Below are positions 188-28,800 of a DNA stretch of 32,000 nucleotides, piece after piece. The notes below the pieces were generated by a model. The model did no database searches and had not been told where the DNA came from. It saw nothing but the letters and a program-made list of their open reading frames with translations. The position numbers were made by a program, and so were the translations under genes. Positions within the stretch are counted from its first letter, which is position 1. Each line of letters opens with the position of its first letter. Origin of the DNA: Patescibacteria group bacterium (GTDB lineage: Bacteria; Patescibacteriota; Patescibacteriia; 2-01-FULL-39-33); contig JBAZRV010000004.1 of the NCBI GenBank assembly GCA_041662745.1, positions 1 to 32,000 on the forward strand, written 5' to 3'.

Positions 188-277
188 TGGCGGAGAGGGC
201 GAGATTCGAACTCGCGGTCCTTTTAAGGGGACTTCAGTTTTCAAGACTGACGCATTCAACCGCTCTGCCACCTCTCC
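188..277 (-). tRNA. tRNA-Ser (anticodon TGA), CCA encoded
   Basis: The reverse complement reads GGAGAGGTGGCAGAGCGGTTGAATGCGTCAGTCTTGAAAACTGAAGTCCCCTTAAAAGGACCGCGAGTTCGAATCTCGCCCTCTCCGCCA. It has acceptor stem GGAGAGG/CCTCTCC, anticodon stem-loop TCAGT-CTTGAAA-ACTGA, a long variable arm (GTCC..GGAC), and T-arm GCGAG-TTCGAAT-CTCGC. Confidence 0.9.
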
Positions 278-4730: not shown

Positions 4731-6257
4731 ATGGAAGTCCAACAAAATGAAGCTTTGGCTTCAAATGATGTTTCCTTAAGAGAAATCATCTCCAACCAAT
4801 CAATGCGAAGCGAGCTGACCCGTCAAAGCCACTGGTGGTTCTTCAATATCTACCTGAACCACTATGTCTCCTATGCAGCCGCTCCCTTCCACAAGCAAAT
4901 TTTCAGCCTAACTGATGACGAAACTATTAAAACCCTGCTTTTGGTGGCCTTCAGAGGCAGTGCCAAATCAACCATCCTGACTTTGTCTTACCCCATCTGG
5001 GCGATCTTGGGCAAGCAGCAAAAGAAGTTTGTCATTATCCTCGGCCAGACCCAAAGGCAGGCCAGGCAGCATTTGGTTAATATCAGGCGCGAACTCGAGG
5101 CCAATGAACTGTTACGGCAAGATCTCGGGCCCTTTAAGGAGATCGAAGACGAATGGGGCTCGTATTCATTGGTTATTCCTAAATACGGAGCCAGGATTAC
5201 GGCCGCCTCCATGGAGCAGACAATCAGAGGTGTGCGACATAATCAGTTCAGGCCGGACTTAATCGTCTGCGATGACATCGAAGACCTGCAAAGCGTTAAA
5301 ACCAAGGAAGGCCGGGATAAAATCCAGCAATGGATTACCGGCGAGGTTATCCCGGCCGGCGATTTGAACACCAGAATCGTCTTTGTCGGCAATTTACTGC
5401 ATGAGGATTCGCTGTTAATGCGAATCAAGGAAAAAATCATTAAAAAAGATATCGATGGCTATTTTCTGGAAATCCCCTTGATTGACAAGGACGGACAGAT
5501 TACCTGGCCGGGTAAATTCGCCAACCTGGAGGATATCGAAAAAGAAAAGAAAAAAATCGGCAATGAAATCTCCTGGCAGCGGGAATACCTGTTGCGGATT
5601 ATCTCCGACAGCGAGCGAGTCATTCATCCTGATTGGATCACCCATTACGAGAAGCTGCCGCCGTTTGACTTTGAGAAGTTTGACTTTAGGTTTACGGCTA
5701 CCGGCATTGATCTGGCTATCTCACAAAAGGACTCAGCTGATTACACAGCCATGGTTTCAGCCCATGTCTATGGCTATGAGCAGAACCTGAAAATCTACAT
5801 CGTGCCCAACCCGATCAATCAGCGGATGACGCACAGTGAAACCTTGAATACGGCCATGAACTTATCCAAATCACTGGGCGAAGGCGAAATGACACACATA
5901 TTAGTCGAAGATGTCGGCTACCAGCAATCAGTCACTCAGGAGCTGGTACGCATGGGCTATCCGGCCAAATCAGTCAAAGTCCATGGCAGCGACAAACGGT
6001 CAAGATTAGCTTTGACTAGCCATTTGATACAGAACAAAACAATCTTGTTTCCACCGCAGGGAGCTGAGCTATTGATCAGCCAACTGGTCGGCTTCGGCGT
6101 AGAGAAACATGACGACTTGGCCGATGCCTTTTCGCTGCTGATTAACAAAATTATCAGCATGAATCATAAGGAGCAGGGCGTAGGATTGTGGGTGCTGACT
6201 GAAGACGGCTGGAGCGGCGGCCGCTACAGAACCAGGGGCAAGGAATTTGAGGATTAA
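4731..6257 (+). CDS. terL: terminase large subunit
   Basis: Walker A-like AFRGSAKST and Walker B LIVCDDIED are present. The C-terminal nuclease-type region includes GVEKHDDLADAF. Its size (508 aa) and position after the TerS-like gene fit. Confidence 0.85.
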   Translation: MEVQQNEALASNDVSLREIISNQSMRSELTRQSHWWFFNIYLNHYVSYAAAPFHKQIFSLTDDETIKTLLLVAFRGSAKSTILTLSYPIWAILGKQQKKFVIILGQTQRQARQHLVNIRRELEANELLRQDLGPFKEIEDEWGSYSLVIPKYGARITAASMEQTIRGVRHNQFRPDLIVCDDIEDLQSVKTKEGRDKIQQWITGEVIPAGDLNTRIVFVGNLLHEDSLLMRIKEKIIKKDIDGYFLEIPLIDKDGQITWPGKFANLEDIEKEKKKIGNEISWQREYLLRIISDSERVIHPDWITHYEKLPPFDFEKFDFRFTATGIDLAISQKDSADYTAMVSAHVYGYEQNLKIYIVPNPINQRMTHSETLNTAMNLSKSLGEGEMTHILVEDVGYQQSVTQELVRMGYPAKSVKVHGSDKRSRLALTSHLIQNKTILFPPQGAELLISQLVGFGVEKHDDLADAFSLLINKIISMNHKEQGVGLWVLTEDGWSGGRYRTRGKEFED

Positions 6258-6534: not shown

Positions 6535-6606
6535 TCCGGGGCAAAAGCCGCCAGTCCGAGCGATTCGGGCAAGTCAGCAGTACCAATCAAGAAAGGAAGG
6601 TATGCC

Positions 6607-7380
6607 ATGGGTAATCCCACGGTGAGCCGTACCCTGTCGGTACACAAGGAACACGAAGTATTATTGAAACTGGAAGCCGCCGGCCTCGATGACGATCTGG
6701 CCCAAAAAGTCATTGACTCCAAAGACAACGACTTGGCCATGAAAGTCATCCGGCTGATTCAGAACGGCGGATTCGAAGCGACCACGAGCCAGAAACGCGC
6801 CCGCGAAATCATGGGCACGAACATGTTCGGCGTCGAGGAAGCTATCCTCCATTTCGGCGTCAATCCCAGCAAAGCGCAACTGGCCGCTCTCTCCGAGATT
6901 CCGTTCTCCGAGGCGGTACTCGCTCAATGCAAAGACACGCACGTTTTGGTGGCAATCTTCCCGCTGTCCATCCTGGAGATCCGCGGCAAGGTAAAGCGCG
7001 GTCTGTTCTACAGCTACGAGGACTCCTGGTATAACAAACAGTCGTTCGCGAAAGACCGCGGCGAAGTGGGTTGGCAACTCGTGCGCAAAACGCCGGTTGA
7101 CAACTCAACGGCGAAGAACTGGACGGAACAGCAAGCGTTGCTGGGCAAGGAAGACGAGACGCCGACCGCCCAGGTTCTGGCCTACACCATCATCGGGCAT
7201 TTCCTGGCCACAGGCGAACGGCTGTTCGAAAAGATCTACGTCCGTACGTCCACTGTGGTTTTGGTCGGCGGCCGCGTCCACCTCGGCTTCTTCGATGCTG
7301 CCGGCCTCGGGGTCTACGGCCGCTGGGCTGACGATCGCCATGGCGCTCTGGCCGTCTCCTCCGCCCGGAAGTCCAACTGA
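6607..7380 (+). CDS. DGR target (variable) protein 1, 257 aa
   Basis: An RBS AAGGAAGG sits upstream. It is paralogous to 7684-8463, sharing MGTNMFGVEEA...GWQLVRKTPV...TPTAQVLAYTIIGHFLATGERLFE. The C-terminal 40 aa are encoded by VR1. No signal peptide or TM segment is evident. Confidence 0.85.
   Translation: MGNPTVSRTLSVHKEHEVLLKLEAAGLDDDLAQKVIDSKDNDLAMKVIRLIQNGGFEATTSQKRAREIMGTNMFGVEEAILHFGVNPSKAQLAALSEIPFSEAVLAQCKDTHVLVAIFPLSILEIRGKVKRGLFYSYEDSWYNKQSFAKDRGEVGWQLVRKTPVDNSTAKNWTEQQALLGKEDETPTAQVLAYTIIGHFLATGERLFEKIYVRTSTVVLVGGRVHLGFFDAAGLGVYGRWADDRHGALAVSSARKSN
7247..7368 (+). repeat. DGR variable region VR1
   Basis: This 122 bp aligns with TR 8829-8950. By hand alignment there are about 25 differences, 23 of them at TR adenines. 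The last 21 nt (CTGGCCGTCTCCTCCGCCCGG) are identical and free of A. Confidence 0.85.
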
Positions 7381-7393
7381 ACCTTGAATCTTT

Positions 7394-7456
7394 GAGGGCT
7401 TGACCCTCTTGATTCCTTGAGCCTTCGGCGCGAATTTTTTTCGTCGCCGAAGGCTC
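7394..7456 (+). promoter_or_regulatory. post-VR hairpin pair (possible DGR target-recognition structure and/or terminator)
   Basis: Hairpin 1 is GAGGG-CTTGA-CCCTC (7394-7408). Hairpin 2 is the 12-bp stem GAGCCTTCGGCG/CGCCGAAGGCTC (7419-7456). The same pair follows VR2. Confidence 0.5.
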
Positions 7457-7540
7457 ACTTCTTTCCTACTATAACCATTGATAGTTTAATAATATTAGTA
7501 ATTGTCCCTTAAAATAAATGTGATAAAAAAATAGATTGAA

Positions 7541-7586
7541 ATGAGCGTTTTGGATGCCAAAGAATTTTGGTTTCTAAAACGCTCGT
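7541..7586 (+). promoter_or_regulatory. conserved 5'-leader stem-loop of DGR target gene 2
   Basis: Stem ATGAGCGTTTT/AAAACGCTCGT encloses an inner CCAAA/TTTGG helix. It is followed by CTCATTCCGAGACAAGAC and preceded by an extended -10-like TGTGATAAA (7519-7527). Confidence 0.45.
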
Positions 7587-7683
7587 CTCATTCCGAGACA
7601 AGACGTAACAACGGGATCGTATTCCCATTTCTAGTCGCCCCAAACAAAAAAAACAAGGGGCTAACAGAAAAGGAGCACATACC

Positions 7684-8463
7684 ATGAAGTGGACAGAAAT
7701 CCTTGCAGGAGAATTGCATGCAGCCGAGCAACGCCTCAGGGTCGCCTTGGGCGACAAGGCCAGCGAAGTTGTCGAGAAAATCAACAGCGATGCCGCTTTT
7801 GCGGACTCGGTCGCCGCGCAAATCATTATGATGGCGGGCGAGGCTGACAAAAGTTCCACCAGCTTGAACCCGCAATGGTTGCGCGCCCGCGAAATCATGG
7901 GCACGAATATGTTCGGCGTCGAAGAAGCCATGAAGCATTTCGGCGTCAATCCCAGCAAAGCACAGCTCGCCGCTCTCGCCGAGATTCCCTTCTCGGAGGC
8001 AGTGCTCGAACAGTGCAAGAACACGCATGTCCTGGTTGCGGTCTTTCCGCTGTCGATTCTCGACATCCGGAGCAAGGCCAATGTCAAGAAGCTGTTCTAC
8101 GACCAGTCGTGGTACAATGGCGAGTCCTTCGCCAAAAGCCGCGGCAAGATCGGCTGGCAACTCGTGCGCAAAACGCCGGTTAGCAACTCAACGTCAAAGA
8201 ATTGGAGCGAACAGCAAGCTCTGATCAGTCAAGACGATGAAACGCCGACCGCCCAGGTTCTGGCCTACACCATCATCGGGCATTTCCTGGCCACGGGTGA
8301 ACGGCTGTTCGAACGCATTTACGTCCGTACATCGTCTGTGGGTTCGGGCGGCAGCCGCGTCCCCCTCGGCGACTTCGCTGCTGCCGGCCTCCGGGTCTAC
8401 GGCAGCTGGGATGACCATCGCGATGGCGATCTGGCCGTCTCCTCCGCCCGGAAGTCCAACTGA
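7684..8463 (+). CDS. DGR target (variable) protein 2, 259 aa
   Basis: An RBS AAAGGAG sits upstream. It is a paralog of 6607-7380 with a divergent N-terminal ~75 aa. The C-terminus is encoded by VR2. Confidence 0.85.
   Translation: MKWTEILAGELHAAEQRLRVALGDKASEVVEKINSDAAFADSVAAQIIMMAGEADKSSTSLNPQWLRAREIMGTNMFGVEEAMKHFGVNPSKAQLAALAEIPFSEAVLEQCKNTHVLVAVFPLSILDIRSKANVKKLFYDQSWYNGESFAKSRGKIGWQLVRKTPVSNSTSKNWSEQQALISQDDETPTAQVLAYTIIGHFLATGERLFERIYVRTSSVGSGGSRVPLGDFAAAGLRVYGSWDDHRDGDLAVSSARKSN
8330..8451 (+). repeat. DGR variable region VR2
   Basis: This 122 bp aligns with TR 8829-8950. By hand alignment there are about 21 differences, 20 of them at TR adenines. It shares the identical A-free 3' 21-mer. 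Confidence 0.85.
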
Positions 8464-8476
8464 ACCTTGAATCTTT

Positions 8477-8540
8477 GAGGGCTTGACCCTCTTGATTCCT
8501 TGAGCCTTCGGCGCGAATTTTTTCGCAATGCCGGAGGCTT
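8477..8540 (+). promoter_or_regulatory. post-VR hairpin pair, copy 2
   Basis: GAGGG-CTTGA-CCCTC lies at 8477-8491. GAGCCTTCGGC.../GCCGGAGGCTT lies at 8502-8540 and is followed by a T-rich run. Confidence 0.5.
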
Positions 8541-8542
8541 AT

Positions 8543-8571
8543 TTTCTTTTTAAACTATTTTTTGCTATAAT
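8543..8571 (+). promoter_or_regulatory. candidate promoter for the TR-containing RNA (weak -35, extended -10 TGCTATAAT)
   Basis: TGCTATAAT at 8563-8571 is the same extended -10 as in the other two promoters. The -35 is only TTTCTT. A second candidate, TGTGATAAA, lies at 8674-8682. Confidence 0.35.
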
Positions 8572-8828
8572 TATTTTGTTCGCTAATGCAGGCGCGGTTA
8601 CGGCTTCGCCTCGCGGACAGCTCATCTTTTTGAGACGTCACCAGAGTATCGCCGTCCACGGATTGCGATAGCGTGTGATAAAAAGATTGAGATGGAACTT
8701 CTTGCCCGCTCTTAGTGGAGGTGATCTTACGCTATCTGCTCCCGAATAAAATACAGGAGAGAAAGGACATAGGCCTGTTTTTTAATAGGCAGTAAACCTT
8801 AATTTCCAGTGATCCTGGCGAGAGCTGG

Positions 8829-8950
8829 CAAATAATGTGGATTCGGACGGCAACCGCGTCAACCTCGGCAACTTCGATGCTACCGGCCTCAAGGTCAACA
8901 ACAACTGGGATGACAATCGCAATGGCGATCTGGCCGTCTCCTCCGCCCGG
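8829..8950 (+). repeat. DGR template repeat (TR), non-coding
   Basis: It is adenine-rich (30 A by my count) and has six AAC and two AAT codons in the VR reading frame. Both VRs differ from it almost only at A positions. There is no plausible start or RBS, and homology to the VRs ends exactly at CGCCCGG (8950). Confidence 0.85.
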
Positions 8951-8971
8951 CACTTCCATCTTTTCTTACTA

Positions 8972-9000
8972 AAACACCCTCCTGTTACAGGAGGGTGTTT
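8972..9000. terminator. strong bidirectional hairpin between TR and avd
   Basis: AAACACCCTCCTG-TTA-CAGGAGGGTGTTT forms a 13-bp stem. T-rich flanks lie on both strands. It sits 22 nt after the TR and 15 nt after the avd stop. Confidence 0.6.
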
Positions 9001-9014
9001 CCATTTATTATGGC

Positions 9015-9365
9015 CTACAATTCCTTAGTTGACTTAATCCAGCCGCCGAGCATTCGGCCGACTTCATCGACATCCTGTTGCAATGTCACGTACTTATTAG
9101 CCGCTAAGGATTTAGTTTCTTTCATCAGCCGCAAGAATATCCTGAGGAAATTCAGCTTTAAGCTGGCTTTTTGCAAAACCGGCAGCTTGTCTGTTTTGGA
9201 CAGCTGGCTGGCCAGCAATATGCTTTCCAAAATATCCAACAGGACATTTTCACAGCGCTGCCACAAAGTGTAGCGGTCTTGCTTAGCCACGCTTTTCCTG
9301 AGGATATAAAATTGCTTGTAGAGATCATAGATTTTTTTAAAGATCGGTATGTCAAAATCTTCCAT
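9015..9365 (-). CDS. avd: Avd-like accessory variability determinant (four-helix-bundle / 23S rRNA-IVS protein family), 116 aa
   Basis: From the ATG at 9365 it reads MEDFDIPIFKKIYDLY...LNFLRIFLRL...DVDEVGRMLGGWIKSTKEL. The C-terminal LRF-LR...EVGRMLGGWI closely parallels Bordetella phage Avd (LRFWLRF...EVGRILGSWI). Confidence 0.75.
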   Translation of the reverse strand: MEDFDIPIFKKIYDLYKQFYILRKSVAKQDRYTLWQRCENVLLDILESILLASQLSKTDKLPVLQKASLKLNFLRIFLRLMKETKSLAANKYVTLQQDVDEVGRMLGGWIKSTKEL

Positions 9366-9401
9366 ATAATTATGAAAATTTATAAAGATATTTATAATGA
9401 G

Positions 9402-9512
9402 ATGATTTCCCTGGAGAATTTGTTTTCCGCCTGGGATAAGTTCAAGATTGGCAATTTTTGCTGGAGTTGGATTTTCCTGATCAATGCTATAATAATTATT
9501 ATATGCGATTAA
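9402..9512 (+). pseudogene. reverse transcriptase 5' remnant (first ~16 codons only)
   Basis: The ATG at 9402 gives MISLENLFSAWDKFKIG, which matches the conserved RT N-terminal pattern I-x-x-ENL-x-x-A-x-x-K-x-x-x-GK. Resemblance is then lost and a stop occurs at 9510-9512. No RT motifs occur downstream in any frame. Confidence 0.5.
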
Positions 9513-9774: not shown

Positions 9775-9875
9775 CGGTGTGTTTACAAAAAAATTCGAAC
9801 CGATTTCACCCCCAAAAATTGATGAGCGGGCGGATTTCCTCCCCCAACCCCTCCATCCGCCCGCCCTTTCGGATT
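9775..9875. repeat. 101-bp inverted repeat, left copy (X)
   Basis: It is the perfect reverse complement of 11388-11488, checked base by base. It contains the 10-bp stem GCGGGCGGAT/ATCCGCCCGC (9826-9835 / 9855-9864) around a 19-nt C-rich loop, plus a TTCGAACCG motif. Confidence 0.9.
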
Positions 9876-9883
9876 TGCGATTT

Positions 9884-11020
9884 TCAGTTTTTCTTTGGCG
9901 ACAAATTCTTTTTTTCTAGCATTCTTACCACCTTAAAATCCGTAGTGATTATTGGAATATTACTTGGTATGACATCTAATATTTCTTGTGGTATCTGCTC
10001 AATATCTTTGTTGATAACAACCGCTACAAAATCTTTCGGTGATATATTACCAATTACTCCCATATCACCCTCACTATTTTCTAATGGCCCTAGAGTATGA
10101 TGTTTGTTTGGGACTTTAAATAAAATTGATAAATCATCCCAAAAGTATTTTTTCATCTCACCGGTTTGTTCATAATCGCTTTTTACTAACTCTGGTGGAT
10201 AGGTTGAAATCATGTTGGTTCCAAAAAGTAAATCCGCCATATTCCTAAAGGGGTCATCATATATTTCGAAATCCTCTTTATTTTTAGGCTCCCATCGGCT
10301 TCTCCAATTTTCCTTTTTCAAACGTTCAAATGCAAACTTAGCTAGAGGTGAACTAAAAAAATATGTCTTTATAGACTGATACACCTTATCAGTTGTTTCT
10401 TTTTTTCTTTCATCTCTTATTTCTGGCGTAACCAATAACCAGTCTTGAGCGTAATCTTCTTGTATCGTTTCAATCAAGATATTTGAAAATTCATCGCTGT
10501 TTACCATTTCGTCGTAACTTATGCTATCTAAATTAGCTCCATCGTGAACCCTTTTGTCTAAAAAGATCGACATTGCGCGAATCATCGATTTGCCAAGCTT
10601 TCCCCGCTCATGTTGTACTTCTGGACCATAGCCACCAATAGGAAAATTAACAGCATAACCCTCTTTTTGTAATCGAATTTTCCGATGGCTCAAAATTCCT
10701 TGCCCAAAATAACTTTTTAATTTATTTAAAAGTTCCTCTATTCGCACAATATCTTTTTCATTACGATCTTCAGGCGCTGCATTCAACATCTTAATTAGTC
10801 CTCCTACGAATCTATAGCCACTGTGCTGAGCAACCTTCCTATCGGAAATTAATTGTTTAATTTCTTCAATTAATATTCTCTCATTTTCTTCTCTTTCATT
10901 ATTATTTAAATCAGGACTTTCTCCGCTCATTAGCCCATCAAAACCCGCCTCATTTTCAGTTGGATACTCAAGGCCTTGAATAAAATCTTCTTCTTGTTTT
11001 GGTTGCTCGAGTTTTGGCAT
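9884..11020 (-). CDS. hypothetical protein (378 aa), co-operonic with XRE regulator
   Basis: This 1137-nt ORF starts 5 nt after the XRE stop. It has an acidic N-terminus and no TM segment. I recognise no catalytic motif, and specifically no RT YxDD or HExxH. Confidence 0.7.
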   Translation of the reverse strand: MPKLEQPKQEEDFIQGLEYPTENEAGFDGLMSGESPDLNNNEREENERILIEEIKQLISDRKVAQHSGYRFVGGLIKMLNAAPEDRNEKDIVRIEELLNKLKSYFGQGILSHRKIRLQKEGYAVNFPIGGYGPEVQHERGKLGKSMIRAMSIFLDKRVHDGANLDSISYDEMVNSDEFSNILIETIQEDYAQDWLLVTPEIRDERKKETTDKVYQSIKTYFFSSPLAKFAFERLKKENWRSRWEPKNKEDFEIYDDPFRNMADLLFGTNMISTYPPELVKSDYEQTGEMKKYFWDDLSILFKVPNKHHTLGPLENSEGDMGVIGNISPKDFVAVVINKDIEQIPQEILDVIPSNIPIITTDFKVVRMLEKKNLSPKKN

Positions 11021-11025
11021 ATTTG

Positions 11026-11238
11026 TTATTTTATTAAATCATCAACCGTAACCCCTAACCCTTTGGCAATTTTTGCCATAGTTTCAATCGTGGGATTGGG
11101 CGTAGCCCCCGATTCAATTTTAATTATTACATTATAAGCAATATCAGCCCTTTTCGAAAGTCCATCTTGAGAAATACCTAGTTTATCTCGGCATTTTTTA
11201 ATATTCCTGGCTATTGTTGGCAATTCACTTTGTTTCAT
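11026..11238 (-). CDS. XRE-family helix-turn-helix transcriptional regulator (70 aa)
   Basis: IKKCRDKLGISQDGLSKRADIAYNVIIKIESGATPNPTIETMAKIAKGLGVTVDDL is a canonical HTH_3 sequence. TATAAT lies 6 nt upstream of the ATG, so the mRNA may be leaderless. Confidence 0.9.
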   Translation of the reverse strand: MKQSELPTIARNIKKCRDKLGISQDGLSKRADIAYNVIIKIESGATPNPTIETMAKIAKGLGVTVDDLIK

Positions 11239-11337
11239 AGTATAATTATACTAGTATAGTAGTTAAACAAGTTTTACTACTATAACTTTATCAAAATTCA
11301 TGGATTTTATCAATAATTTTTTTAAGCCCGCTTTTGG

Positions 11338-11366
11338 CCAAAATGAAGTTCGAGCCGATATTTTTT
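11338..11366. repeat. 29-bp inverted copy (B) of recombinase 3' coding sequence
   Basis: CCAAAATGAAGTTCGAGCCGATATTTTTT is the perfect reverse complement of 12969-12997. Confidence 0.85.
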
Positions 11367-11387
11367 CCAGGTTCTTTGGCGGTTTTC

Positions 11388-11488
11388 AATCCGAAAGGGC
11401 GGGCGGATGGAGGGGTTGGGGGAGGAAATCCGCCCGCTCATCAATTTTTGGGGGTGAAATCGGTTCGAATTTTTTTGTAAACACACCG
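11388..11488. repeat. 101-bp inverted repeat, right copy (X')
   Basis: It is the perfect reverse complement of 9775-9875. Confidence 0.9.
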
Positions 11489-11572
11489 CCAATCGGTATT
11501 TGCCCAATTTTCGGGCAGAAGTTTCAGAATTCGCCAACCAGTTTTGGCCTGAAATTCAAATTTTTTGGCTTC
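11486..11572. repeat. 87-bp inverted copy (A) of recombinase 3' end plus the tRNA-Ser 3' terminus
   Basis: It is the perfect reverse complement of 12997-13083, checked base by base. It begins with CCGCCA, the 3' end of tRNA-Ser(GCT). Confidence 0.9.
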
Positions 11573-11634
11573 TGATTCTTAAAGAATTGCCAAAAGCGGG
11601 CTTTAAAAAAATTATTAGTTTTAATCTTAAATAT

Positions 11635-13137
11635 ATGAAGTACTTTATTTACGCTCGCAAGTCCACTGACAGCGAAGAACGGCAGATCTTAAGCATTGAA
11701 TCCCAGATTGCTGAGTTGTATGAATTTGCCGCCAAAGAAAAACTGGAAATCGCCGCTTCGCTGTGCGAAGCGAAAACCGCCAAAGAACCTGGCCGAACTG
11801 TGTTCGGAGAAATGCTGGATCGGATTTGCGCCGGCGAAGCCGGAGGAATTTTGGCTTGGCACCCGGATCGGCTGGCTAGAAATTCAATTGACGGAGGCAA
11901 AATCATTTATCTTTTGGACACAGGCCAGATCAAAGACCTAAAGTTTCCCACATTTTGGTTTGACAGCACACCGCAAGGAAAATTCATGATGAACATTGCC
12001 TTTGGCCAAAGCAAGTATTACATCGACAATTTAAGCGAGAATATACGGCGAGGCCATCGGGCTAAACTAAGAAAAGGGATTTGGCCAGTCTTTGCCCCGC
12101 TTGGCTATCTAAATAATCACAGGACCAAAGGCATAGAATTAGACAGGGAAAGGGCGCCTTTGGTCAAAAAATGCTTTGAGCTATACGCTACGGGCGAATA
12201 TACCCTCAAAGCCCTAAGAGATGTAATCAGCCAAGCGGGGCTAAGAAGCTACCGAGGCAATGTTCTGGCCGTGGCCTGTGTCCAAAGAATGCTCAAGAAC
12301 TCGATCTACTATGGCCTATTCAAATTTAACGACGAATTGCATGAGGGAACGCACGAGCCGATTATTTCCAAGAAACTTTTTGATGAAGCTCAACAAGTAA
12401 TGAGTAATCGAGGCAAGAAGAAACGAAAGCGAAAACACGAATTTGCTTTTTCTGGATTAATGAAATGTGGGGTCTGCGATTGCCTCATAACGGCGGAAAA
12501 ACAAAAAGGCCATAATTACTATCGTTGCACCAAGAAAAAACAAACCTGCGACGAAAAATGTCTGCGCGAAGAATTACTTGTTGAACAGATGAAAGAGATA
12601 ATTCAAAAAGTTTCTTTGCCTGACGATTGGGCAAAAAATATGCTCGCCGAGATTGAGTTGGAACGAGAACAAGCAAGAAAAGACGGCATGATTTTTGGGC
12701 AAAAACTGGAAGTGAGAAAAACAGAAATCGAGCAAACCATGGAACGACTGCTTGATTTGTTTATTGAAGGCAAGCATATCGAGCCAGAGGAATATCACGC
12801 TAAAAAACAAAAACTTCTCATCGAGAAGTGTGAGCTTAATCAACAAATCAAGGATTTTGCCCAAAAAGGAAATAATTGGCTCGAACCCATGAAAGAAATG
12901 ATTTTAGCCAGCAGCCAAGCCAAAATTCTATTGTCGCGAGGCGACAATTCGCAAATCCGAGCATTTCTAAAAAATATCGGCTCGAACTTCATTTTGGAAG
13001 CCAAAAAATTTGAATTTCAGGCCAAAACTGGTTGGCGAATTCTGAAACTTCTGCCCGAAAATTGGGCAAATACCGATTGGCGGAGAGAGAGGGATTCGAA
13101 CCCTCGGTACGCCCATAATAGACGTACAACGGTTTAG
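11635..13137 (+). CDS. large serine recombinase (integrase/invertase type), ~500 aa
   Basis: The N-terminus MKYFIYARKSTDSEERQ carries the catalytic Ser motif, followed by HPDRLARN. A recombinase domain is followed by a Cys-rich zinc ribbon (CGVCDC...YYRCTKKKQTC) and a coiled-coil region. The ORF track start at 11500 is a non-ATG extension through repeat A. The last ~20 codons read antisense through the tRNA (ERDSNPR). Confidence 0.9.
   Translation: MKYFIYARKSTDSEERQILSIESQIAELYEFAAKEKLEIAASLCEAKTAKEPGRTVFGEMLDRICAGEAGGILAWHPDRLARNSIDGGKIIYLLDTGQIKDLKFPTFWFDSTPQGKFMMNIAFGQSKYYIDNLSENIRRGHRAKLRKGIWPVFAPLGYLNNHRTKGIELDRERAPLVKKCFELYATGEYTLKALRDVISQAGLRSYRGNVLAVACVQRMLKNSIYYGLFKFNDELHEGTHEPIISKKLFDEAQQVMSNRGKKKRKRKHEFAFSGLMKCGVCDCLITAEKQKGHNYYRCTKKKQTCDEKCLREELLVEQMKEIIQKVSLPDDWAKNMLAEIELEREQARKDGMIFGQKLEVRKTEIEQTMERLLDLFIEGKHIEPEEYHAKKQKLLIEKCELNQQIKDFAQKGNNWLEPMKEMILASSQAKILLSRGDNSQIRAFLKNIGSNFILEAKKFEFQAKTGWRILKLLPENWANTDWRRERDSNPRYAHNRRTTV
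12969..13083. repeat. B'-A' segment: native contiguous copy of repeats B and A
   Basis: 12969-12997 pairs with 11338-11366, and 12997-13083 pairs with 11486-11572. The segment lies inside the recombinase 3' coding region and overlaps the tRNA by 6 nt. Confidence 0.9.
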
Positions 13138-13172
13138 CAAACCGCCGCCTTCAGCCACTCGGCCATCTCTCC
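13078..13172 (-). tRNA. tRNA-Ser (anticodon GCT), CCA encoded
   Basis: The reverse complement reads GGAGAGATGGCCGAGTGGCTGAAGGCGGCGGTTTGCTAAACCGTTGTACGTCTATTATGGGCGTACCGAGGGTTCGAATCCCTCTCTCTCCGCCA. It has acceptor GGAGAGA/TCTCTCC, anticodon loop TTGCTAA, a long variable arm, and T-arm GAGGG-TTCGAAT-CCCTC. Confidence 0.9.
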
Positions 13173-14495: not shown

Positions 14496-16400
14496 CTAAT
14501 TGTTCTGCGATAGCATTGCCTCAGCAAATTCCTTCTTGGCCGCTTCAATTTCCAACAACTGCCGCGGATCGGAAGTAATCAACTGATCTTCAGAATATGA
14601 GGCCACCACTTTAACGGCCACGTGTTTGGCGCCGGCAAAGAAAATACCTTCGCCCACCGCGCTTTCCAACAACAAATATTTTTCTCCTTCAGTCAATAAA
14701 AAGGTCTTTTGCACCAAATCAATGGCCGCCGGAGACTGCTTAAGCAATAATTGAAGGGCGGAATTATTGACAATGGCCTGGCCATAAGGAGAGGTCAAAA
14801 AATCATTAACATCCTGAGTGATGGTCGTAACGCCCAAATAATATTTGCGGCAACGTTTGACCAGAGCAAAAATGAATTTGGCTGAATCTTCGCGCTGCAT
14901 CAGCCACCAAGCTTCATCTACCACTAAAATCCTCTTTTTCATTTCGGAACGGACAATATTCCAAATATAATTGACAATAGTATAGATTGCCAGCGGCTTA
15001 AGCTCATCTTCCAAATCACGGACGGAAAAAACCACCAGCTGATTATTTAATTGGACGTTTGTCGGATGATTAAGCAGGCCGGAAAAAGTGCCTTCAGTAT
15101 ATTTTTTAAGGCGCAAAACAATACTGCTGCCGCCCTCCATACCTTCCAAAATATCCTGAAAATCCTGCATGATAGGCGGTTCCACCGAACGCAAATCAGC
15201 ATCGGGAGTGATGTCTTTCTTGGCATAAGTTTCCAACAATGCGCGATCAATAATGGAATCCTCCTCCGGCGTAACATCGCCGATCATTAATCGCACTAAC
15301 CCCTTAACGGTAATAACGGCATTGCGGATAATATCTGCCGGTTTGGCGTCTTCACCGATAGCCCGAGGCAAGTCAAAGGGATTGATTTTGCCCTCAGAAT
15401 TAAGCGAAATATCGATGTAAGTGCCGCCAACGGCTTCACACAGGTGATTATACTCCCGTTCCGGATCAATAATGATCACATCGGTTCCAAACATCATGCT
15501 GCGCAAAACTTCCAATTTGATCGTATATGACTTGCCGGCGCCGGAAGTGGCAAACACCACGGAATTGGCATTCTGCAAGGAGAAACGATCAAACAGGATT
15601 AAACTGTTATTGTGGCGGTTAATGCCATACAAGATGCCGTGATCGGAAGTCAAATCCGAGGATACGAACGGAAAAGAAGACGCGGCCGGCGAAGAGTTTA
15701 GATTGATATAGACTTGAAGTTCATCATACGCCATGGGCAAGGTAGAATTAAATCCTTGCTCAGCCTGATAAAACACTCGGCGAGAAAAAATCAGAGTGCC
15801 GCCGAAAAAGTTCTCAATGCGTTCCGAAGTTTTGTCCAATTCCTCCAATGTCTTGGCATATAAAGTCACATACAAAGAAAATTGAAAAAAATGCTCAATA
15901 CCTTGAGTCAGATCATCGCGCAATTTCTCCATATCGCGCAAAGCGGTTTCAGACAAAGGATCGCGGGGCGCTCCCTTTTCCGCCGCGCCGATAATCGTCG
16001 CTTCCAACACGCCGACTTTTTTCTTTAATTGCTTCAAAATGACCGCGGCTTTAACCGGAAAAAAATACATGGCCATGTCCGCCTCAATATCCATATTGAT
16101 AATCGGCGCAAACCAGCCGACGGCGATATAGCGAGGATATTCAAAAACAAAAATCGTCCGAATATAAAGCTCGCCCAACCTGATATGATCGGAATTAACC
16201 TCCAAGGCGGCCGGAGCAATCAAATCCCGGACAGAAACGACGCCGCGCCGATAAATTCTCTCCTCCTCCAACACTTCGCGCGCCGTTTGCAACTCCTTAA
16301 CTTCCGCTTGTTTCTTCTGCTGTTGCGTTGGCGGCGGCGGCGGAGCATAACCGACTGAAGCCGGGGTTGTTTGCTTATTGATATCTTCTGGAGTAAACAT
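14496..16400 (-). CDS. virB4: VirB4/TrsE/TraC-type type IV secretion ATPase (634 aa)
   Basis: Walker A is VFATSGAGKSYT and Walker B is ILVVDEAWWLM. The N-terminal region (ELYIRTIFVFEYPRYIAVGWFAPIINMD) is typical of the VirB4 family. Confidence 0.85.
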   Translation of the reverse strand: MFTPEDINKQTTPASVGYAPPPPPTQQQKKQAEVKELQTAREVLEEERIYRRGVVSVRDLIAPAALEVNSDHIRLGELYIRTIFVFEYPRYIAVGWFAPIINMDIEADMAMYFFPVKAAVILKQLKKKVGVLEATIIGAAEKGAPRDPLSETALRDMEKLRDDLTQGIEHFFQFSLYVTLYAKTLEELDKTSERIENFFGGTLIFSRRVFYQAEQGFNSTLPMAYDELQVYINLNSSPAASSFPFVSSDLTSDHGILYGINRHNNSLILFDRFSLQNANSVVFATSGAGKSYTIKLEVLRSMMFGTDVIIIDPEREYNHLCEAVGGTYIDISLNSEGKINPFDLPRAIGEDAKPADIIRNAVITVKGLVRLMIGDVTPEEDSIIDRALLETYAKKDITPDADLRSVEPPIMQDFQDILEGMEGGSSIVLRLKKYTEGTFSGLLNHPTNVQLNNQLVVFSVRDLEDELKPLAIYTIVNYIWNIVRSEMKKRILVVDEAWWLMQREDSAKFIFALVKRCRKYYLGVTTITQDVNDFLTSPYGQAIVNNSALQLLLKQSPAAIDLVQKTFLLTEGEKYLLLESAVGEGIFFAGAKHVAVKVVASYSEDQLITSDPRQLLEIEAAKKEFAEAMLSQNN

Positions 16401-22804: not shown

Positions 22805-25800
22805 TTAGTATCCGCAGTTGCCATAACGGTTGCAGAGACGAAAATTCAAGGACGGCGAAACATTCACCTGGGCCGCCTTATAAGGACGGGACGCATCTTC
22901 TTCGGTATTCAAGAAAGTCGGCGACTGGTCTTCTCCTCCCGCATACAGGGTCACATCGTACAAGCTCGCCTCAATCGGACTGCCGGCTTGCGCTGAATTG
23001 GTTACCACTCTTAAAACCACTCGATCGCCGATTCCCACTTTATCAGCCGGACCATCACAACTTTGATTCTGACAAACCTTAAAATAAACATCGCCGTCCG
23101 CGCCACAGGCATCCAAATAAGCCTTCCAATCGCTCGGATCAGCGCCAAATAATTGTTGCAACCAAGTCGGCTGTGTCTTATAAATATTCAACTTGATCGG
23201 ACTAACCACGGGAATTGACGCGGCATCAGCCGGTTTGACCGCTGATGTTGCCGGACAACTATTTGAACCGGAACCGTAAGAATCCTTAAAACACGGCACT
23301 AAGCGGAAAATGTCGCCGTAACGCAATTGCTTATCACTCTCGGCGTCATTAGGCGCATAAACCAAATCAAGAAAATACTCAATGCTACTGCTAACGGCAT
23401 AGCCGGCAAAAGTGCTGGCATCAGCATTAAAATTAAAATTGCCCTTGCTTTCGCCCCGCTCATCATTGTATTCCCCTTCTTCTCCGGTTCCGGGAGCTCC
23501 GCCGCAACCGCCACCCACCGTGTTTATCGCCATAAACGCCTTCCAGTCATAACTGTCATGGGCCAGCGTAATCAGACTGCCTTGGCCCAAAGGACAATCA
23601 ATATCATCATCCAATGACTTGGTTTCCGGACAAACGCCATCAGCGTAATCAATGGGAGCAACATCGGCCACGACATTGCCACAATCATCCGGACTGTAAT
23701 TATCAGTATTGGGATCAATGGCTTGTTCGCCGATATCGCAATAACCGTCGCCTATCTCTCGACAGCGGCGCCAACCGCCGGTATAAGTGGCGCAACATGT
23801 TTTCTGAGTGGAATCAGTGGGGTCAATATTAAGATTGACCTCGTTTTCCGGCAACCAATAACAAGTGGCCGAGCAACAGGGGTTGCCACTGGAGCATTGT
23901 TGGCCCAAAGCCGAGCTGTAACTGGCCGGTTTGCATTCGGCCAAAGCATCCTGCTGTTCCGCATCATAAGTATCCCGCCTTAAGACAATCAAATCCTTAA
24001 TCGTTATGGAATTAACCGAAGCCCAATTATCCCGTACCGTTAATTTAATCGGCACGTGGAAAGCAGCGGGATTGGAAGTTGATCTTACCGGTTCTTGGCA
24101 AGCGCCTTTGGTCAAGTCGTCATTGTATTCTTCAACTGTTTCCGTGGTGCCATCGCCCAAAGGCAAGATGCCGACTTTTGTCTCGCATTCCCGTAAATTC
24201 TTATTGGCTAAGCTGTCATAGTTATAAAAATGATACAGATTAAAAGCGTTAGAGGAAGTGGGGCGGCTAGCCAGAGACAAGCCGGCGTAAGATGATACGT
24301 TGCCATCGCCCCAATCAATATCATAAGAACGAATAGGCACCTGATCCGGATCAATCTTGGAATTAAAGCTTACTTTAACCGCGCCGATACTGTTAACAAT
24401 AGTGGGGTTGACCTGGGCTAAAGTGAATTCCGGCCTAACCAAGCAGAATGACAAATAAGTATTGGCGGGACGGGAGTTATTGGGACAATACAACGTCGGC
24501 AAACTCCAAACCGAGTTATTAGAGCTGATGGCGCCGGAAATATCAGTATAATGCCCTATCAAGGGATCGCTGGATTTATCCGCCTGCCATTGCCATAAAC
24601 TGTAAGAACGCCCGAATAATTGCAACAAGTCCGGCTTGCTGACGGAGAAATTGTCAACATAGTATAGGGAATTATCTGATTTCTGACCGGCGCGCGCTTG
24701 GTAGGGTGGCGCACTGCCGCCGGGGAATTCATAAAAAATCGGTTGATTACCGCCGGAGTCGGGACGAGTATCCCATTCATTGGGGTATTGGCCGTTTTCC
24801 GGCGCCACCGTAGAGCCGAAAGGTTTGTAATCGGTAGCGTAATTGTAGCCGACGGCCGCATAAATGCGGCGATAAATCAGCTTTTTATCCCTCAAAATGC
24901 CGATTGCTCCGAAATTCCTATCATTGACGCAAAAATATTTATAATTAATCCGACAATCATTTATGGCAATAGAGGGGGTATCTTTGGCAAAACTATGAAC
25001 TTGAAAATAATTATTATCCGCTGATTCTCCGATGGGACGAGAGTTATAAGCAATCTCGCAGTTCAGGGCATTAGCCTGATTAAGATAAGCGGTGCGTTGT
25101 CTTCCCTCCAAGGATATACCTTCAGCGCAATATAATTTGCGCGTCGGATCATCGGGATCGTTGACTCCCTGACCATTATCAATGCCAATAAAATTCTGGC
25201 ATAAATTCAAGGGATAAAAACCTAATAAAGCGCCATCAGCATCATAGAGGCGACGGCTTTCAGCCAAACAATAAGCGGAACTGTAGAAACAGCCATCAGA
25301 AAACAACTCGGCATTGCTTGGCGTAACAATGCCCACACCGGAAGGAATAGCATCTCCGGAAATTGAACTGTCTTTAACGCAATCTTTGCCCAAATAATCC
25401 AAATATTGCGAACCGGACGATAAACGACTGGCCCAAGCTTTGTTCTCATTGCCGGAATTAACCACTTGAACCAACTTGTAGCAATACTCCACCACCTGTT
25501 TGCCGGCAAAATTACCCACAACGGCTATACCGCCCATTTTATCGCCCATGCCGGCCGGCTTATTGAAATCCAAGAACTTGGCAAACCCCAGAACATCTCC
25601 GGTTACTGCGGGATTGGGGTCGGTCAGATCCTTGCCGAACTCCGAATCTTCATCAGTAATAATCCTTAAGCCGAAAGTGGAAATTCCCAAGTCTACACCG
25701 GCCGCCTGGATAAGCATGCCAGCCAAATTGCCCAAAACTCCTCCGGAAGTGTCAAACTTCTTAGCGGTATGCCAAGGCAGTTCAACATGCAAGACAATAT

Positions 25801-28800
25801 TAACCGGAACAAAACTCAATAGCTGTCCGTAACCGGCGACAGCCACCGCCCCCCAACCGCCCCAAGAATCTTCATCAGCCAAGTTAAGCGAATTGGGAGC
25901 AAAAACTATGTCCAGCAAATTGCCCAGACTGCCGAAAATAGAATTGAAAAATTGACTAATGCCTGACCAAGTATTGGTCCAGAAACTGGAAGTTTGTCCT
26001 TCACAATCTTCAGTTGAACCCCTGCAACCTCCATAAAGGTCATTCAAAGATTGATTTTGCTGAGAAATCGTTTGCGCCACTCCGACTGCTCCGGCTGAAG
26101 CGCCGCTGTCAACAAACACTTTGGCGCATTTATTGGTGCCGGGATTAGAGCAGTGGACTGAGTCTTCACAATTCGCGATACCGCCGGTACAAGAACACGG
26201 CTCAGCCGTTGTCTCGCAAAAATAAGTATAATCGCTGATCGGCTTGGCGTACTTTTCGGCTAAGTCTGCAGTAATACAATTATTATTGGAAGAGAAAGCT
26301 TCTGTGGAGTTAACGCAATTGGCAGTATTAACGACGCTCTGACAAGTGCTATTGGCATTGTCTTCCGGATTATCGCACGAGCAAGGCTTTAATCCTCCGC
26401 CAGATGAGTCATTAAGCGTGGCTAAAACGGAATATTCGCAAACCCTGCCACTGGGATTGCTTTGCACCCAGGATTGCACTTCCTCTTGAGCCGGAGTGGT
26501 CACGGAGCTTGTGTCCGAAACGGTAATTAACCCGTTGCCGGCCGGAACATAACAAATAGGCAAAGGAATGATGCCTAACGGTTTGGCGCAAACTAAATTC
26601 TTCCACATGCCGACTGACAGGGCTCCGCCAAACAGGGTGTGACTGGCCGTATCGCCGATAGCGATAAAAATGCCGTCAAATTGGAATTTATAAATAAACG
26701 GATAACGGAAGAGCGGCGACCAAGTCGGACTGATTCTAAACGAGGTAGCTTTGGTTTGTTTGGCATTAGTGTCAAATTTCAACGCCTCCATGCCGGAATC
26801 ATTCACGCCTTCGCCGAACAAGCCGAAATTACTCGTGTATTGCGACACGTCAAGAACCATAGTTCTCTTTTCCAAGCAATAATACAAAGGATAGCGCTCG
26901 CTGTAATAACCGGAAAAATCGCTTAAAGTCTCACCGCGAATGGAATCAACCGGCCACCATTGCAAACACTGCTGATTATTGGCCGGGTCCGGCGTCAAAC
27001 AATAGCCGTATTGGCCATAAAAATAATTATTACCGTCATTATACTTGCAAGCCGGAGCATTCAGGCTGGGATAAACGCGACAAGTGCGATCAACATAGCC
27101 ATTGGCGCTGGATTTAAGCAACGGCTTAAGATTGACGTTATCCCACAAGGTATAACCGCCGAGTTTGGAGTTATCTATGCCTTTGCTGCCGTCGGGATTC
27201 ATATTGAATAAGGCGAGTTGCACTCCGGAAACATTGTCTCCCGTACGGAAATGCACTATTACCTGCCTCCAGGGCAAGCCGGTAGGAATCTGCATTATCT
27301 CGCCTTTGACCCAGTCGCCTTCATAAACCCCGCCATCAACAATGGCTAAGCCGGGACGCGGCTGACTCTTGGAATTAAGAAAGCGCAAACGCAATTCCGC
27401 ATAAGGCAAGCGACCGCCGGAACCCGGACCTTGTAAATCCTTGGTATGAACCCAGGCGGACAAAAAATATTCCTGATTGGGCAGTATATCAACCGACTCG
27501 GAAATAACGCCCCAACCCGAATTAACTTTTAAATAACCTACGCCATCTTTGGCCTTGGCGCCGTCACGGCTGATATTGACATAGCTTGATTGCCAATTCC
27601 TGTAGACGATATCAGGATTGCCGCTGGCGCAATCAGAATTGCTGGCGCAATAATAAACGGCCAAACGCCAGCCCAACGGCTGAGTCGTAGCGCCGAAAGT
27701 CTCTTCAAAATTACCATTAACCACATTAGACGACTGGCCGACTTGCGTCATGGCATCAAAAGAATAATAGCCAACGCGTGAAAAACCGGATTTATTGGCA
27801 TCCAACGAGGGAGAATAGTCATCGTTGCTAACAGCATCATTAGTCAGATAATTATTGCAAATACCGTTATCGCCCAAAGAATTGCAAGCGCTGACCTCCA
27901 AGCAAGAATCCTGATCGCTGAAAAAATACGGAGCTAAAGTGGATGACTGCCCCTCTTCTTTCTTCTCAAAAGTAGAGCAAGTCAGCCAATTGGCGCAGGC
28001 GCGGTTGGGTTGCGATTTCAAAATAACATTAGCGTCTTTGGGTTTGCCTTCAGCGGTCGCGGCTGTCGGCGGAACCGAGCGGGATAAACCGTTAATGCCT
28101 TGCGGATAATTATTATCCCGAGTCAAACGGCTGGAAAAAGCCAACGAGGTGGTGGCGCTATTAATCAGATTGCTGTAATCAAGCTGACTGCGATCATTGA
28201 ATAAAACACAGCCTTTATGATAATCAACTTGACCGTTGCAATCGCCGCCGCTAACCTTGGAATTCAAAATATAAGAAACGCTGGCCAAGCCCACTTTATC
28301 CCTGACTAAATCTATCGGTGATCCGTCTTTGGTCTTGAAAGCCACGCGACAAGTCAATGATTTGGGGTTATCCACGGCTAAATAAAGATAATGGCCAAAA
28401 TTATCGGAGAGATTATTACTTACGTTTTGGACATCGCTGCAAATTATATCGCCGACTTGCAGATTGTCGGACAGGACATACAAAATATTTTTCTTAATAG
28501 ACACATCTGCGCAGACATCCTTGCCCTCACAGCGTTGCGGGATAAGATTGGACGCTAAATTTTCTAATGGATCAATATATTCGCTGCAACCGGATTGTTC
28601 GGCTGAACAGGACCCGACCCAGCCGCTGTAAGCCGGATCAGACGATTCTTGCAGAGTCACTGAGTTGATCGGGCCGAGCGGTTGCAATTTGTCCGTCGCC
28701 GCCTTATAGCTTAAGCCCAGCGTTTGCTGGTAAGTGGTAGGACAAGTCTCGGTGGTGCCGGATTTAACCCATTTATCCAAATTATTGGTATTATCAGCGG

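Follow-up and report, generated by a model that had tools for sequence, protein, structure and literature searches.

A tRNA-targeting large serine recombinase element from Patescibacteria with a putative inverted spare attachment site

Introduction

Serine integrases rank among the main tools of genome engineering, and a separate factor is considered necessary for their directionality. We analyzed a stretch of 32,000 nucleotides from a Patescibacteria group bacterium (assembly GCA_041662745.1, contig JBAZRV010000004.1, positions 1–32,000 of the forward strand; hereafter the window), in which the 3' end of a serine recombinase gene abuts a tRNA-Ser gene and is preceded, upstream of the gene, by a module of inverted repeats. 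Together with a small cargo these form a 3.3 kb integrative element of a large serine recombinase (LSR), with the module as a putative second, inverted copy of the element's own attachment site (attP). The closest described systems are the large serine integrases of phages and integrative and conjugative elements, such as phiC31, Bxb1, A118/LI and SPbeta SprA. The enzyme in the window has the same Resolvase, Recombinase and zinc-ribbon domains, and its sites seem to follow the same logic of attP × attB recombination with a very short crossover and a 5-bp offset between the P' and B' motifs. Unlike those integrases, it would have its attP core inside the integrase open reading frame (ORF), a target set almost only by the tRNA half-site and a second, inverted attP within the element, and a directionality factor is not evident.

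Several other systems share single features with this locus. Engineered phiC31 docking cassettes with inverted attP sites (MiMIC, used for recombinase-mediated cassette exchange, RMCE) are flanked by two inverted attP sites, and two relatives described below, with the recombinase segment between two convergent tRNA genes, look like a natural counterpart. Those cassettes are synthetic and placed in the target genome, whereas here the pair belongs to the mobile element and single-site integration is normal. Hin and Gin segments and the yeast 2-micron circle (FLP/FRT) also have a recombinase gene in or beside a segment bounded by inverted repeats of its own site, the 2-micron circle with two flippable segments, but they use small invertases or a tyrosine recombinase on identical short sites, with an enhancer or a role in amplification, whereas the element here has an LSR integrase, repeats of 87–200 nt and a strongly skewed orientation. 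We rejected a Hin/Gin-type invertase switch for the window, where the recombinase has 500 aa with LSR domains and the repeats span 87–101 nt, rather than a small helix-turn-helix (HTH) invertase acting on 26-bp sites. The R64 shufflon likewise has several inverted repeats that delimit segments near a recombinase gene (rci), but its tyrosine recombinase, single type of repeated 19-bp site and alternative PilV C-termini have no equivalent here; the only recombinase is a serine enzyme, and the repeats A, B, C, D and X comprise five distinct sequences with two copies each.

Tycheposons and Islander-type islands resemble the element in inserting at tRNA 3' ends, restoring the tRNA, carrying small variable cargo and forming tandem arrays. 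As described in the sources available, tyrosine integrases predominate among them and insertion leaves the 3' portion of the tRNA as a long direct repeat; those sources report no internal inverted copy of the attachment site. In mycobacteriophages BPs and Brujita, immunity depends on an integration-dependent switch in which attP lies inside a gene, the repressor is truncated and the integrase is a tyrosine enzyme; here, too, integration would alter the 3' end of a reading frame spanning attP, but it is the integrase's own tail that changes. Our literature searches found no description of a natural internal or inverted attP or of this tRNA-targeting clade, returning only synthetic RMCE cassettes and unrelated systems, in agreement with a first-pass annotation of the window that did not recognize the arrangement as a described system. 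A serine-integrase integrative element with a conserved architecture of two attP sites and mirror-image units is thus, as far as found, undescribed.

Results

Relatives were collected in a scan of one genome per species, which yielded 30 loci with 50–97% amino acid identity to the recombinase, and in a metagenome scan with an alignment of 26 homologues, which yielded a further 80 loci (50–95% identity), giving about 110 loci in total, all from uncultured organisms. Repeats were located by self-comparison, protein domains with Pfam and tRNAs with ARAGORN and Rfam. Attachment sites, including the offset between attP and attB, were assigned by comparing sequences across loci.

The final bases of the recombinase-side repeat A meet the tRNA as ...TGGCGG/tRNA (a slash marks a junction throughout), and the reverse complement of the module shows the same arm joined to X (...TGGCGG/TGTG..TTCGAAC..). 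CGG is the sole sequence common to both junctions in the window. Across loci, the host DNA to the left of X shows no relationship from one locus to another, and resemblance to the module begins inside CGG or next to it; homology between the window and its relatives begins exactly at 9775 and ends near the tRNA junction. These sequence comparisons show that A, the last ~29 recombinase codons, is the P arm of attP and X the P' arm, and that integration left host/X as attL and A/tRNA as attR, with the crossover within the shared CGG. By the same comparisons the module is an inverted, complete copy of the element's own attP (X'/A') set between mirrored copies of the recombinase leader, and the former attB would have read ...TTCTACTAC/CGG/AGAGAGAGGGATTCGAACCC.

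The same pattern recurs in 17 loci with eight tRNA specificities, where the reverse-complemented module reads P arm/P' arm and the recombinase end reads the same P arm/tRNA. The terminus of the P arm follows the discriminator base and CCA of the target (TGGCGG for Ser, TGGCTG for Gln, TGGTGG for Ala and Val). In several clades the motif T(T/C)CGAAC starts 17 nt from the crossover in P' and 12 nt from it in the T-arm of the tRNA; X mimics the T-arm at a 5-bp offset. Such an offset between attP and attB is the signature of recognition by the LSR zinc-ribbon domain in the Rutherford/Van Duyne model, and the match therefore provides independent support for the assignment of the sites.

Targets in the subclades comprise tRNA-Ser, -Gln, -Ala, -Asp, -Trp, -Glu, -Asn and -Val. 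The recombinase 3' end faces the tRNA 3' end in all 70 loci in which a tRNA was detected there, and in several more with tRNA fragments; among the genome loci it abuts the 3' end of an opposite-strand tRNA-Ser wherever a tRNA was detected, with any serine anticodon. Insertion is at the tRNA 3' end, as in tRNA-associated islands, and the tRNA is restored by the element-supplied TGG (CCA): the final TGGCGG of A supplies the discriminator base and CCA, and the minus strand of A forms the trailer and a hairpin after the tRNA. A long direct repeat of the tRNA 3' part is absent from the far end, where only 3–9 nt are shared, as expected because the integrase is a serine rather than a tyrosine enzyme. 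Given the unrelated left flanks and a tandem junction that is independent of the arm (below), the non-tRNA arm of the target hardly matters.

Within the element (Table 1), the stretch 11338–11572 is a seamless patchwork of four perfect inverted copies (B', C', X' and A'), and the 87- and 101-nt perfect repeats are real because a chance origin is impossible in 32 kb. The first-pass annotation had mapped A, B and X with correct coordinates and had correctly described their layout as interleaved rather than nested; its 15-bp repeat bounding the module is part of the longer IR-L and IR-R pair (IR, inverted repeat). The 21 bp that it took for a spacer between B and X' are instead C', copied from within the recombinase gene, and the copy D' next to X had been overlooked.

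Table 1 Features and repeat copies of the element in the window.
Feature	Position	Strand	Description
Whole integrated element	9775–13083	+	From putative attL crossover CGG 9775–9777 to putative attR crossover CGG 13081–13083
X	9775–9875	+	Putative P' arm of attL; TTCGAAC 17 nt from crossover; GC-rich terminator-like hairpin
D'	9877–9908	−	Reverse complement of 11722–11753 in the recombinase gene; 32 nt, 94%; adjoins X
Cargo ORF, 378 aa	9884–11020	−	No Pfam family
XRE-type HTH regulator, cargo unit	11026–11238	−	Pfam HTH_3, E 8e-14
Promoter-like site	11217–11246	+	TTGGCA-18-TATAAT, 11/12 matches; points toward the module
IR-L	11317–11338		Left arm of bounding repeat, inverted relative to IR-R (22 nt, 95%); mirrors recombinase leader
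B'	11338–11366	−	Reverse complement of 12969–12997; 29 nt, 100%
C'	11367–11387	−	Reverse complement of 11772–11792 in the recombinase gene; 21 nt, 100%
Putative internal inverted attP	11388–11572	−	X' joined to A' at core CCG 11486–11488
X'	11388–11488		Reverse complement of 9775–9875; 101 nt, 100%
A'	11486–11572		Reverse complement of 12997–13083; 87 nt, 100%
Small hairpin between A' and IR-R	11574–11588	+	Structure kept via compensatory changes between lineages
IR-R	11589–11610		Right arm of bounding repeat, in recombinase leader
Large serine recombinase gene, 500 aa	11635–13137	+	3' end crosses putative attR core and runs antisense into tRNA
D	11722–11753	+	In recombinase gene; source of D'
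Palindrome between D and C	11754–11772	+	In recombinase gene
C	11772–11792	+	In recombinase gene; source of C'
B	12969–12997	+	With A, last ~38 recombinase codons
A	12997–13083	+	With B, putative P arm of attR
tRNA-Ser(GCT)	13078–13172	−	Putative B' half of former attB; intact by ARAGORN and Rfam

On the minus strand, the module reads A/X-C-B and corresponds exactly to a single turn of a 237-bp circle that is opened at the B/A boundary; in this circle B and A are contiguous, just as they are in the gene, and A/X is the attP junction. This is the only compact description of the module; an inverted dimer, a tandem array followed by inversion, and crossovers at pseudo-sites were each considered and none yields the order B'-C'-X'-A'. 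Small palindromes in the recombinase coding sequence (11754–11807 and 12990–13004) coincide exactly with the breakpoints of the copied pieces: CGCTTCG-CTGTG-CGAAGCG between D and C, CCGAAC-TGT-GTTCGG after C, and TTTTGG-AAG-CCAAAA at B/A. The sequence CCGCCAAAGAA is present in both C and D, and the CCGCCA within it is the 3' end of tRNA-Ser. Module breakpoints are identical down to clades of ~51–59% identity, and the module therefore arose once.

The DNA to the left of IR-L mirrors the recombinase leader, and the cargo unit looks like a mirrored copy of leader and recombinase in which codons 1–28 are replaced by cargo and which is cut after D by X'. On this comparison, the element consists of two mirror-image units, a cargo unit bounded by X and X' and a recombinase unit bounded by A' and A. 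At the end of the cargo unit, D' has the sense orientation when read on the minus strand, and it contains the stop codon of the 378-aa cargo ORF. The hairpin of X (−27.4 kcal/mol, z −2.2) stands at the end of the cargo operon, and X', which contains a 12-bp GC stem followed by a U-run, stands between the promoter-like site, which comes from a consensus scan only, and the recombinase gene. Cargo in the relatives measures 0.6–3.3 kb with 1–4 genes and differs at almost every locus; it includes an ABC ATPase, an HD domain protein, S-adenosylmethionine (SAM) methyltransferases, a radical SAM enzyme, a DNA methylase, a Na/Ca exchanger and a racemase, many genes without a family, and an XRE regulator in 7 of 32 loci.

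Domain matches cover Resolvase (PF00239, E 2e-16, residues 4–149), Recombinase (PF07508, E 3e-14) and Zn_ribbon_recom (PF13408, E 6e-7), S10 and R8 are invariant in the homologue alignment, and residues ~330–420 are, by length only, long enough for a coiled-coil insert in the zinc-ribbon domain. There is a weak sequence match to the A118 integrase structures 4KIS and 6DNW, including the A118 C-terminal domain. By its domains the enzyme is a bona fide LSR, but every integrase of the INPHARED phages and PLSDB plasmids has <30% amino acid identity to it. Neither the recombinase nor the module ORF had an exact protein match on record. At least 7,898 homologues with E <1e-20 were found among the 8,000 candidates scored. 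Its ORF ends ...FLKNIGSNFILEAKKFEFQAKTGWRILKLLPENWANTDWRRERDSNPRYAHNRRTTV before the stop codon, antisense into the tRNA, and its two predicted C-terminal tails read ...DWRRERDSNPRY... and ...DWRCVYKKIRTDFTPKN.

The comparison with related genomes that the first-pass annotation had proposed returned the same architecture in the ~110 relatives. Hosts of the 30 genome loci include Patescibacteria lineages, Gammaproteobacteria, Dehalococcoidales, Nitrospira, Kiritimatiellia, Desulfaltia and one deltaproteobacterium, with Chloroflexi among the phyla named. A' and A were found in nearly all genome loci with enough flank (78–95 nt, mostly 98–100% identical), and most closer relatives also carry B' and B, C' and C, X and X' (101–117 nt), D' and the bounding repeat; the D-derived piece adjoins X in relatives too. 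In the metagenome loci, A' and A span 75–167 nt and X and X' 95–200 nt, both usually 96–100% identical within a locus. The closest relative (P0001, 95% amino acid identity, a Patescibacteria metagenome-assembled genome; loci L003 and L004) has the same module with the same breakpoints, with less similar copies (94% for X and X', 86% for A and A'). The DNA shared by the window and L003 is limited to X with D' and to the module with the recombinase gene; the genes in between differ. Across loci the arrangement is a family-wide conserved architecture, not a local rearrangement, which the first-pass annotation had missed, as it had the integrated nature of the element and the identity of A/X as its attP junction.

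In L003 (11430–21470), the 95%-identical recombinase lies beside phage lysis and tail genes (Amidase_2, LysM, BppU_N), and its 3' arm differs from its module copy; a phage genome, too, serves as a vehicle for the element or its integrase module. In L027 (1–5200), an insertion of ~3.4 kb splits the recombinase gene after about residue 62.

Assembly chimerism, which the first-pass annotation had named as a possible refutation, was checked against contigs from two other samples. L001 (ENA ERZ27249449) corresponds to the window from 11464 to 8460 and is 100% identical from 9037, and L115 (JGI 3300014208) corresponds to 14003 to 11384 at 99.9%; jointly they reproduce every junction, and both contigs stop inside or at the edge of X', as a repeat would cause. 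An assembly or multiple displacement amplification chimera is thus ruled out by junctions common to two other samples and >100 relatives from different assemblers. Contigs of many relatives (L007, L008, L012, L013, L034, L043 and others) begin inside the module or end exactly at the A end. At these loci, short-read assemblies are systematically broken by the inverted repeats, and alternative arrangements may be hidden by this.

The repeat copies evolve in concert. A is strongly divergent between lineages (window/L005, L006, L008 and L010 types), but A' equals A within each locus, and B' and C' track the lineage-specific substitutions of B and C. B' and B co-vary in 36 loci, and C', located 216–311 nt upstream of the start codon, is 94–100% identical to the C of its own locus in 42 loci. 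Copies within one element remain ~98–100% identical while lineages diverge and switch target tRNA. Divergence within elements is ~2%, flat along the arms and without added conservation near the core (72 distinct A pairs, 45 X pairs), and mismatches between A and A' show no wobble bias (36 G:U-type, 43 A:C-type, 66 transversion-type). This uniform divergence and neutral spectrum point to homogenization at the DNA level, by recombination or gene conversion between copies, and do not point to selection for RNA pairing or protein binding alone; RNA pairing as the force that keeps A equal to A' was rejected on the mismatch spectrum and the absence of a focus on the core. Exceptions look like a module swap between lineages, as in L017, or a local deletion, as in L014.

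We then compared arrangements among relatives. The segment from X to X' is inverted in L014 and L051, that is, in 2 of the 44 loci classifiable by this segment; judged by cargo gene strand alone, cargo is opposite to the recombinase in 29 of 32 loci. L014 reads host/X-C-B-IR-L'-cargo(+)-D-X'/A'-hairpin-IR-R-recombinase-A/tRNA, and L051 has the same order. L019 and L026 read host/X-C-B-IR-leader-cargo-D-palindrome-C...A/tRNA, an arrangement that the flipped isomer would yield by a deletion between its two directly repeated copies of D; such a deletion takes out the internal attP and recombinase codons 1 to ~29. The same truncated recombinase occurs in L053 and L054, with left ends not seen. The multi-state locus predicted in the first pass thus finds a basis only in the X and X' pair, on an evolutionary time scale, in the inverted loci and their derivatives, but there is no sign of switching in the window.

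In L057 (2230–7200), two complete elements stand in tandem at a single tRNA-Ser and meet at a hybrid A2/X1 junction near 3897, and L015 probably carries a similar tandem. The junction implies that the incoming attP used either the resident A/tRNA or host/X. In principle this junction constitutes a complete attP, directly oriented relative to the proximal attR, and would allow factor-free excision of the proximal element. Another type of locus, 2–3 of the ~110, has a tRNA joined to A'. In L077 a tRNA-Ser(gct)(+) is joined at ...CCGCCA/ directly to A', with a second tRNA-Ser(tga)(−) after A; L075 reads tRNA-Ser(+)/A'-recombinase; and in L112 the recombinase lies between two convergent tRNA-Gln genes. 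L077 and L112 are the two loci likened above to RMCE cassettes. All three are the products expected from the internal attP or A' recombining with a second tRNA, or from a flip of the recombinase segment.

Two further arrangements were tried and rejected. A transposon with terminal inverted repeats is inconsistent with A' and A, and X and X', each pairing an end with an internal site, and, as for an insertion sequence of that kind, the ends X and A are mutually unrelated and nothing is duplicated beyond the crossover. Copying of cDNA by the reverse transcriptase (RT) of the neighboring diversity-generating retroelement (DGR) is inconsistent with the absence of adenine-specific differences, with copies that are inverted and 100% identical, with the truncated RT and with relatives that have no DGR.

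This DGR, missing from the loci of the relatives, occupies 6600–9450 directly to the left of the element. It comprises two paralogous target ORFs (6607–7380 and 7684–8463) with variable repeats at 7254–7368 and 8337–8451, a template repeat at 8836–8950 with adenine-specific differences, a bAvd gene on the opposite strand (9018–9362) and an RT-like N-terminus (9366 to ~9445) of which ~27 codons are left, the RT appearing truncated or lost. L001 (2934–4387) compared with the window at 8460–9037 is ~10% diverged to the left of 9037 and has one DGR target gene, not two; the sharp identity boundary inside the 3' end of the Avd gene suggests recent recombination or transfer. A second tRNA-Ser (TGA) is found at the left edge of the window (188–277), and an ORF at 4731–6257 weakly resembles a terminase (E 0.0018); an older prophage at the same hot spot may have left behind the DNA that separates the two tRNA-Ser genes. 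On the right-hand side of the tRNA, a TraG/VirB4-like ATPase gene (14496–16400) and a 3063-aa ORF (22805–31996) are host or other mobile genes unrelated to the element.

Discussion

On balance we lean, short of firm conviction, toward the view that the window holds an LSR integrative element at a tRNA-Ser 3' end whose inverted spare attP is a live recombination site. Under this proposal, the recombinase would use the spare attP for reactions in cis or at another tRNA gene, with no need to excise the element first. The long inverted repeats would allow the cargo or the recombinase segment to invert, whether driven by the recombinase or by homologous recombination between the 87–200-nt repeats, and the favored orientation, with cargo divergent from and recombinase convergent with the tRNA, would be selected. 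The role of the spare attP is what we infer from these arrangements, and a precedent for weak exchange exists in the A118 integrase, for which attP × attP recombination occurs at <5% of the attP × attB rate (PMC3556126).

Several observations weigh against a live spare site. Canonical LSRs do not recombine attP with attL or attR (PMC3556126). The window has the majority configuration, with nothing to indicate switching, and orientation is skewed at 42:2 for the cargo and ~70 to at most 3 for the recombinase. This skew implies that inversion is rare or selected against, and the spare attP may chiefly serve some other purpose. A search for an empty tRNA-Ser(GCT) site via the flanking ComF-like protein found only occupied copies, and no circular or attP form was found at the recombinase 3' end, where A is followed by tRNAs, tRNA fragments or a neighbor's X (L015, L057). 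No directionality factor was identified among the loci, almost all of which differ in cargo and which have no conserved second gene, though such a factor could be host- or phage-borne. The tRNA/A' locus L077 could also arise by homologous recombination between two elements, and the model leaves the pieces B', C' and D' (20–29 nt) and their co-variation unaccounted for.

More tentatively, and with doubts that outweigh our confidence, the element might use its two attP sites for factor- and excision-free flipping of its gene against attR, for RMCE-like exchange between convergent tRNAs and for chromosome inversion between tRNAs, with the leader...D...X' unit serving as a one-gene cargo slot.

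Among the alternatives, the one that survives best, though we judge it unlikely, is that the internal attP is an operator for autorepression of the recombinase, that the X' and A' hairpins terminate transcription from the cargo side and that gene conversion keeps the copies identical only incidentally. The module occupies precisely the interval from a strong promoter-like site directed into it to the recombinase start, the X' stem and U-run suit a terminator, the heavily skewed orientation suits a fixed regulatory layout, and the available account of KplE1 offers in intS an integrase gene regulated via a promoter overlapping its attachment site. Yet ~50 bp suffices for an operator, and identity is uniform over 87–200 nt with no preference for the core. 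In L077 and L075, A' is joined to the tRNA precisely at the core, which is an outcome of strand exchange.

Control at the RNA level seems to us distinctly improbable. Here, read-through transcripts carrying antisense B', C' and A' would fold back by pairing of IR-L and IR-R and be silenced, as in IS10 and IS50. The minus-strand pieces of the module are indeed all antisense to the recombinase mRNA when read on the plus strand, the short pieces co-vary with their targets, and the hairpin between A' and IR-R shows compensatory changes that include three U:G pairs possible on the plus strand only (L037, L047, L058). The absence of a wobble excess speaks against it, as do copies that are near-perfectly identical rather than merely complementary, the position of B and C outside the leader in the flipped isomers L014 and L051, and the sense orientation of D' in the cargo transcript. 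Neither an operator nor fold-back RNA accounts for B', C' and D'.

We give still less credence to the phase-variable, shufflon-like switch put forward in the first-pass annotation, in which recombination between A and A' flips the recombinase gene and exchanges its C-terminal tail. The geometry permits it, the flipped ORF would end ...TDWRCVYKKIRTDFTPKN before a stop codon, L075 has tRNA(+)/A' upstream of the recombinase gene and the X–X' segment occurs in both orientations. However, the 70 of 70 recombinase 3' ends that face a tRNA leave at most 3 of ~73 loci (L075, L077, L112) for such a flip, A, B, C, D and X have no common crossover sequence, the recombinase is a serine integrase and not a tyrosine enzyme such as Rci, and the alternative tail corresponds to attP-form versus attR-form read-through. 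That an ancient inverted duplication survives here as a neutral fossil, or that the locus is an assembly chimera, is scarcely credible: the breakpoint microhomology GCCAAAA, the small palindromes at the breakpoints and a module that reads as one turn of a deleted circle resemble a single historical accident, but the arrangement recurs across assemblers and samples and is kept in >100 loci over 50% amino acid divergence and eight target switches, with copies held ~98% identical.

For the integrative element with a spare attP, the wider meaning lies in the family. The clade is very widespread, with thousands of homologues in Patescibacteria, Proteobacteria, Nitrospira, Chloroflexi and other phyla, and its targeting, which appears to read essentially only the tRNA half-site, has been redirected to at least eight tRNA types. 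The attachment site also lies within the coding sequence of the enzyme itself and has a second, inverted copy whose sequence is kept identical. Textbook accounts of the integrase cycle include none of these properties. An active spare site would offer a natural route to factor-independent rearrangement and cassette exchange and would explain many contig breaks and tRNA-linked rearrangements in the genomes of uncultured bacteria; a spare site that is only regulatory would still be a new solution to the control of an integrase gene. Should the dual-attP reading be true, the family would constitute a retargetable, broad-host platform for delivering cassettes to tRNA 3' ends.

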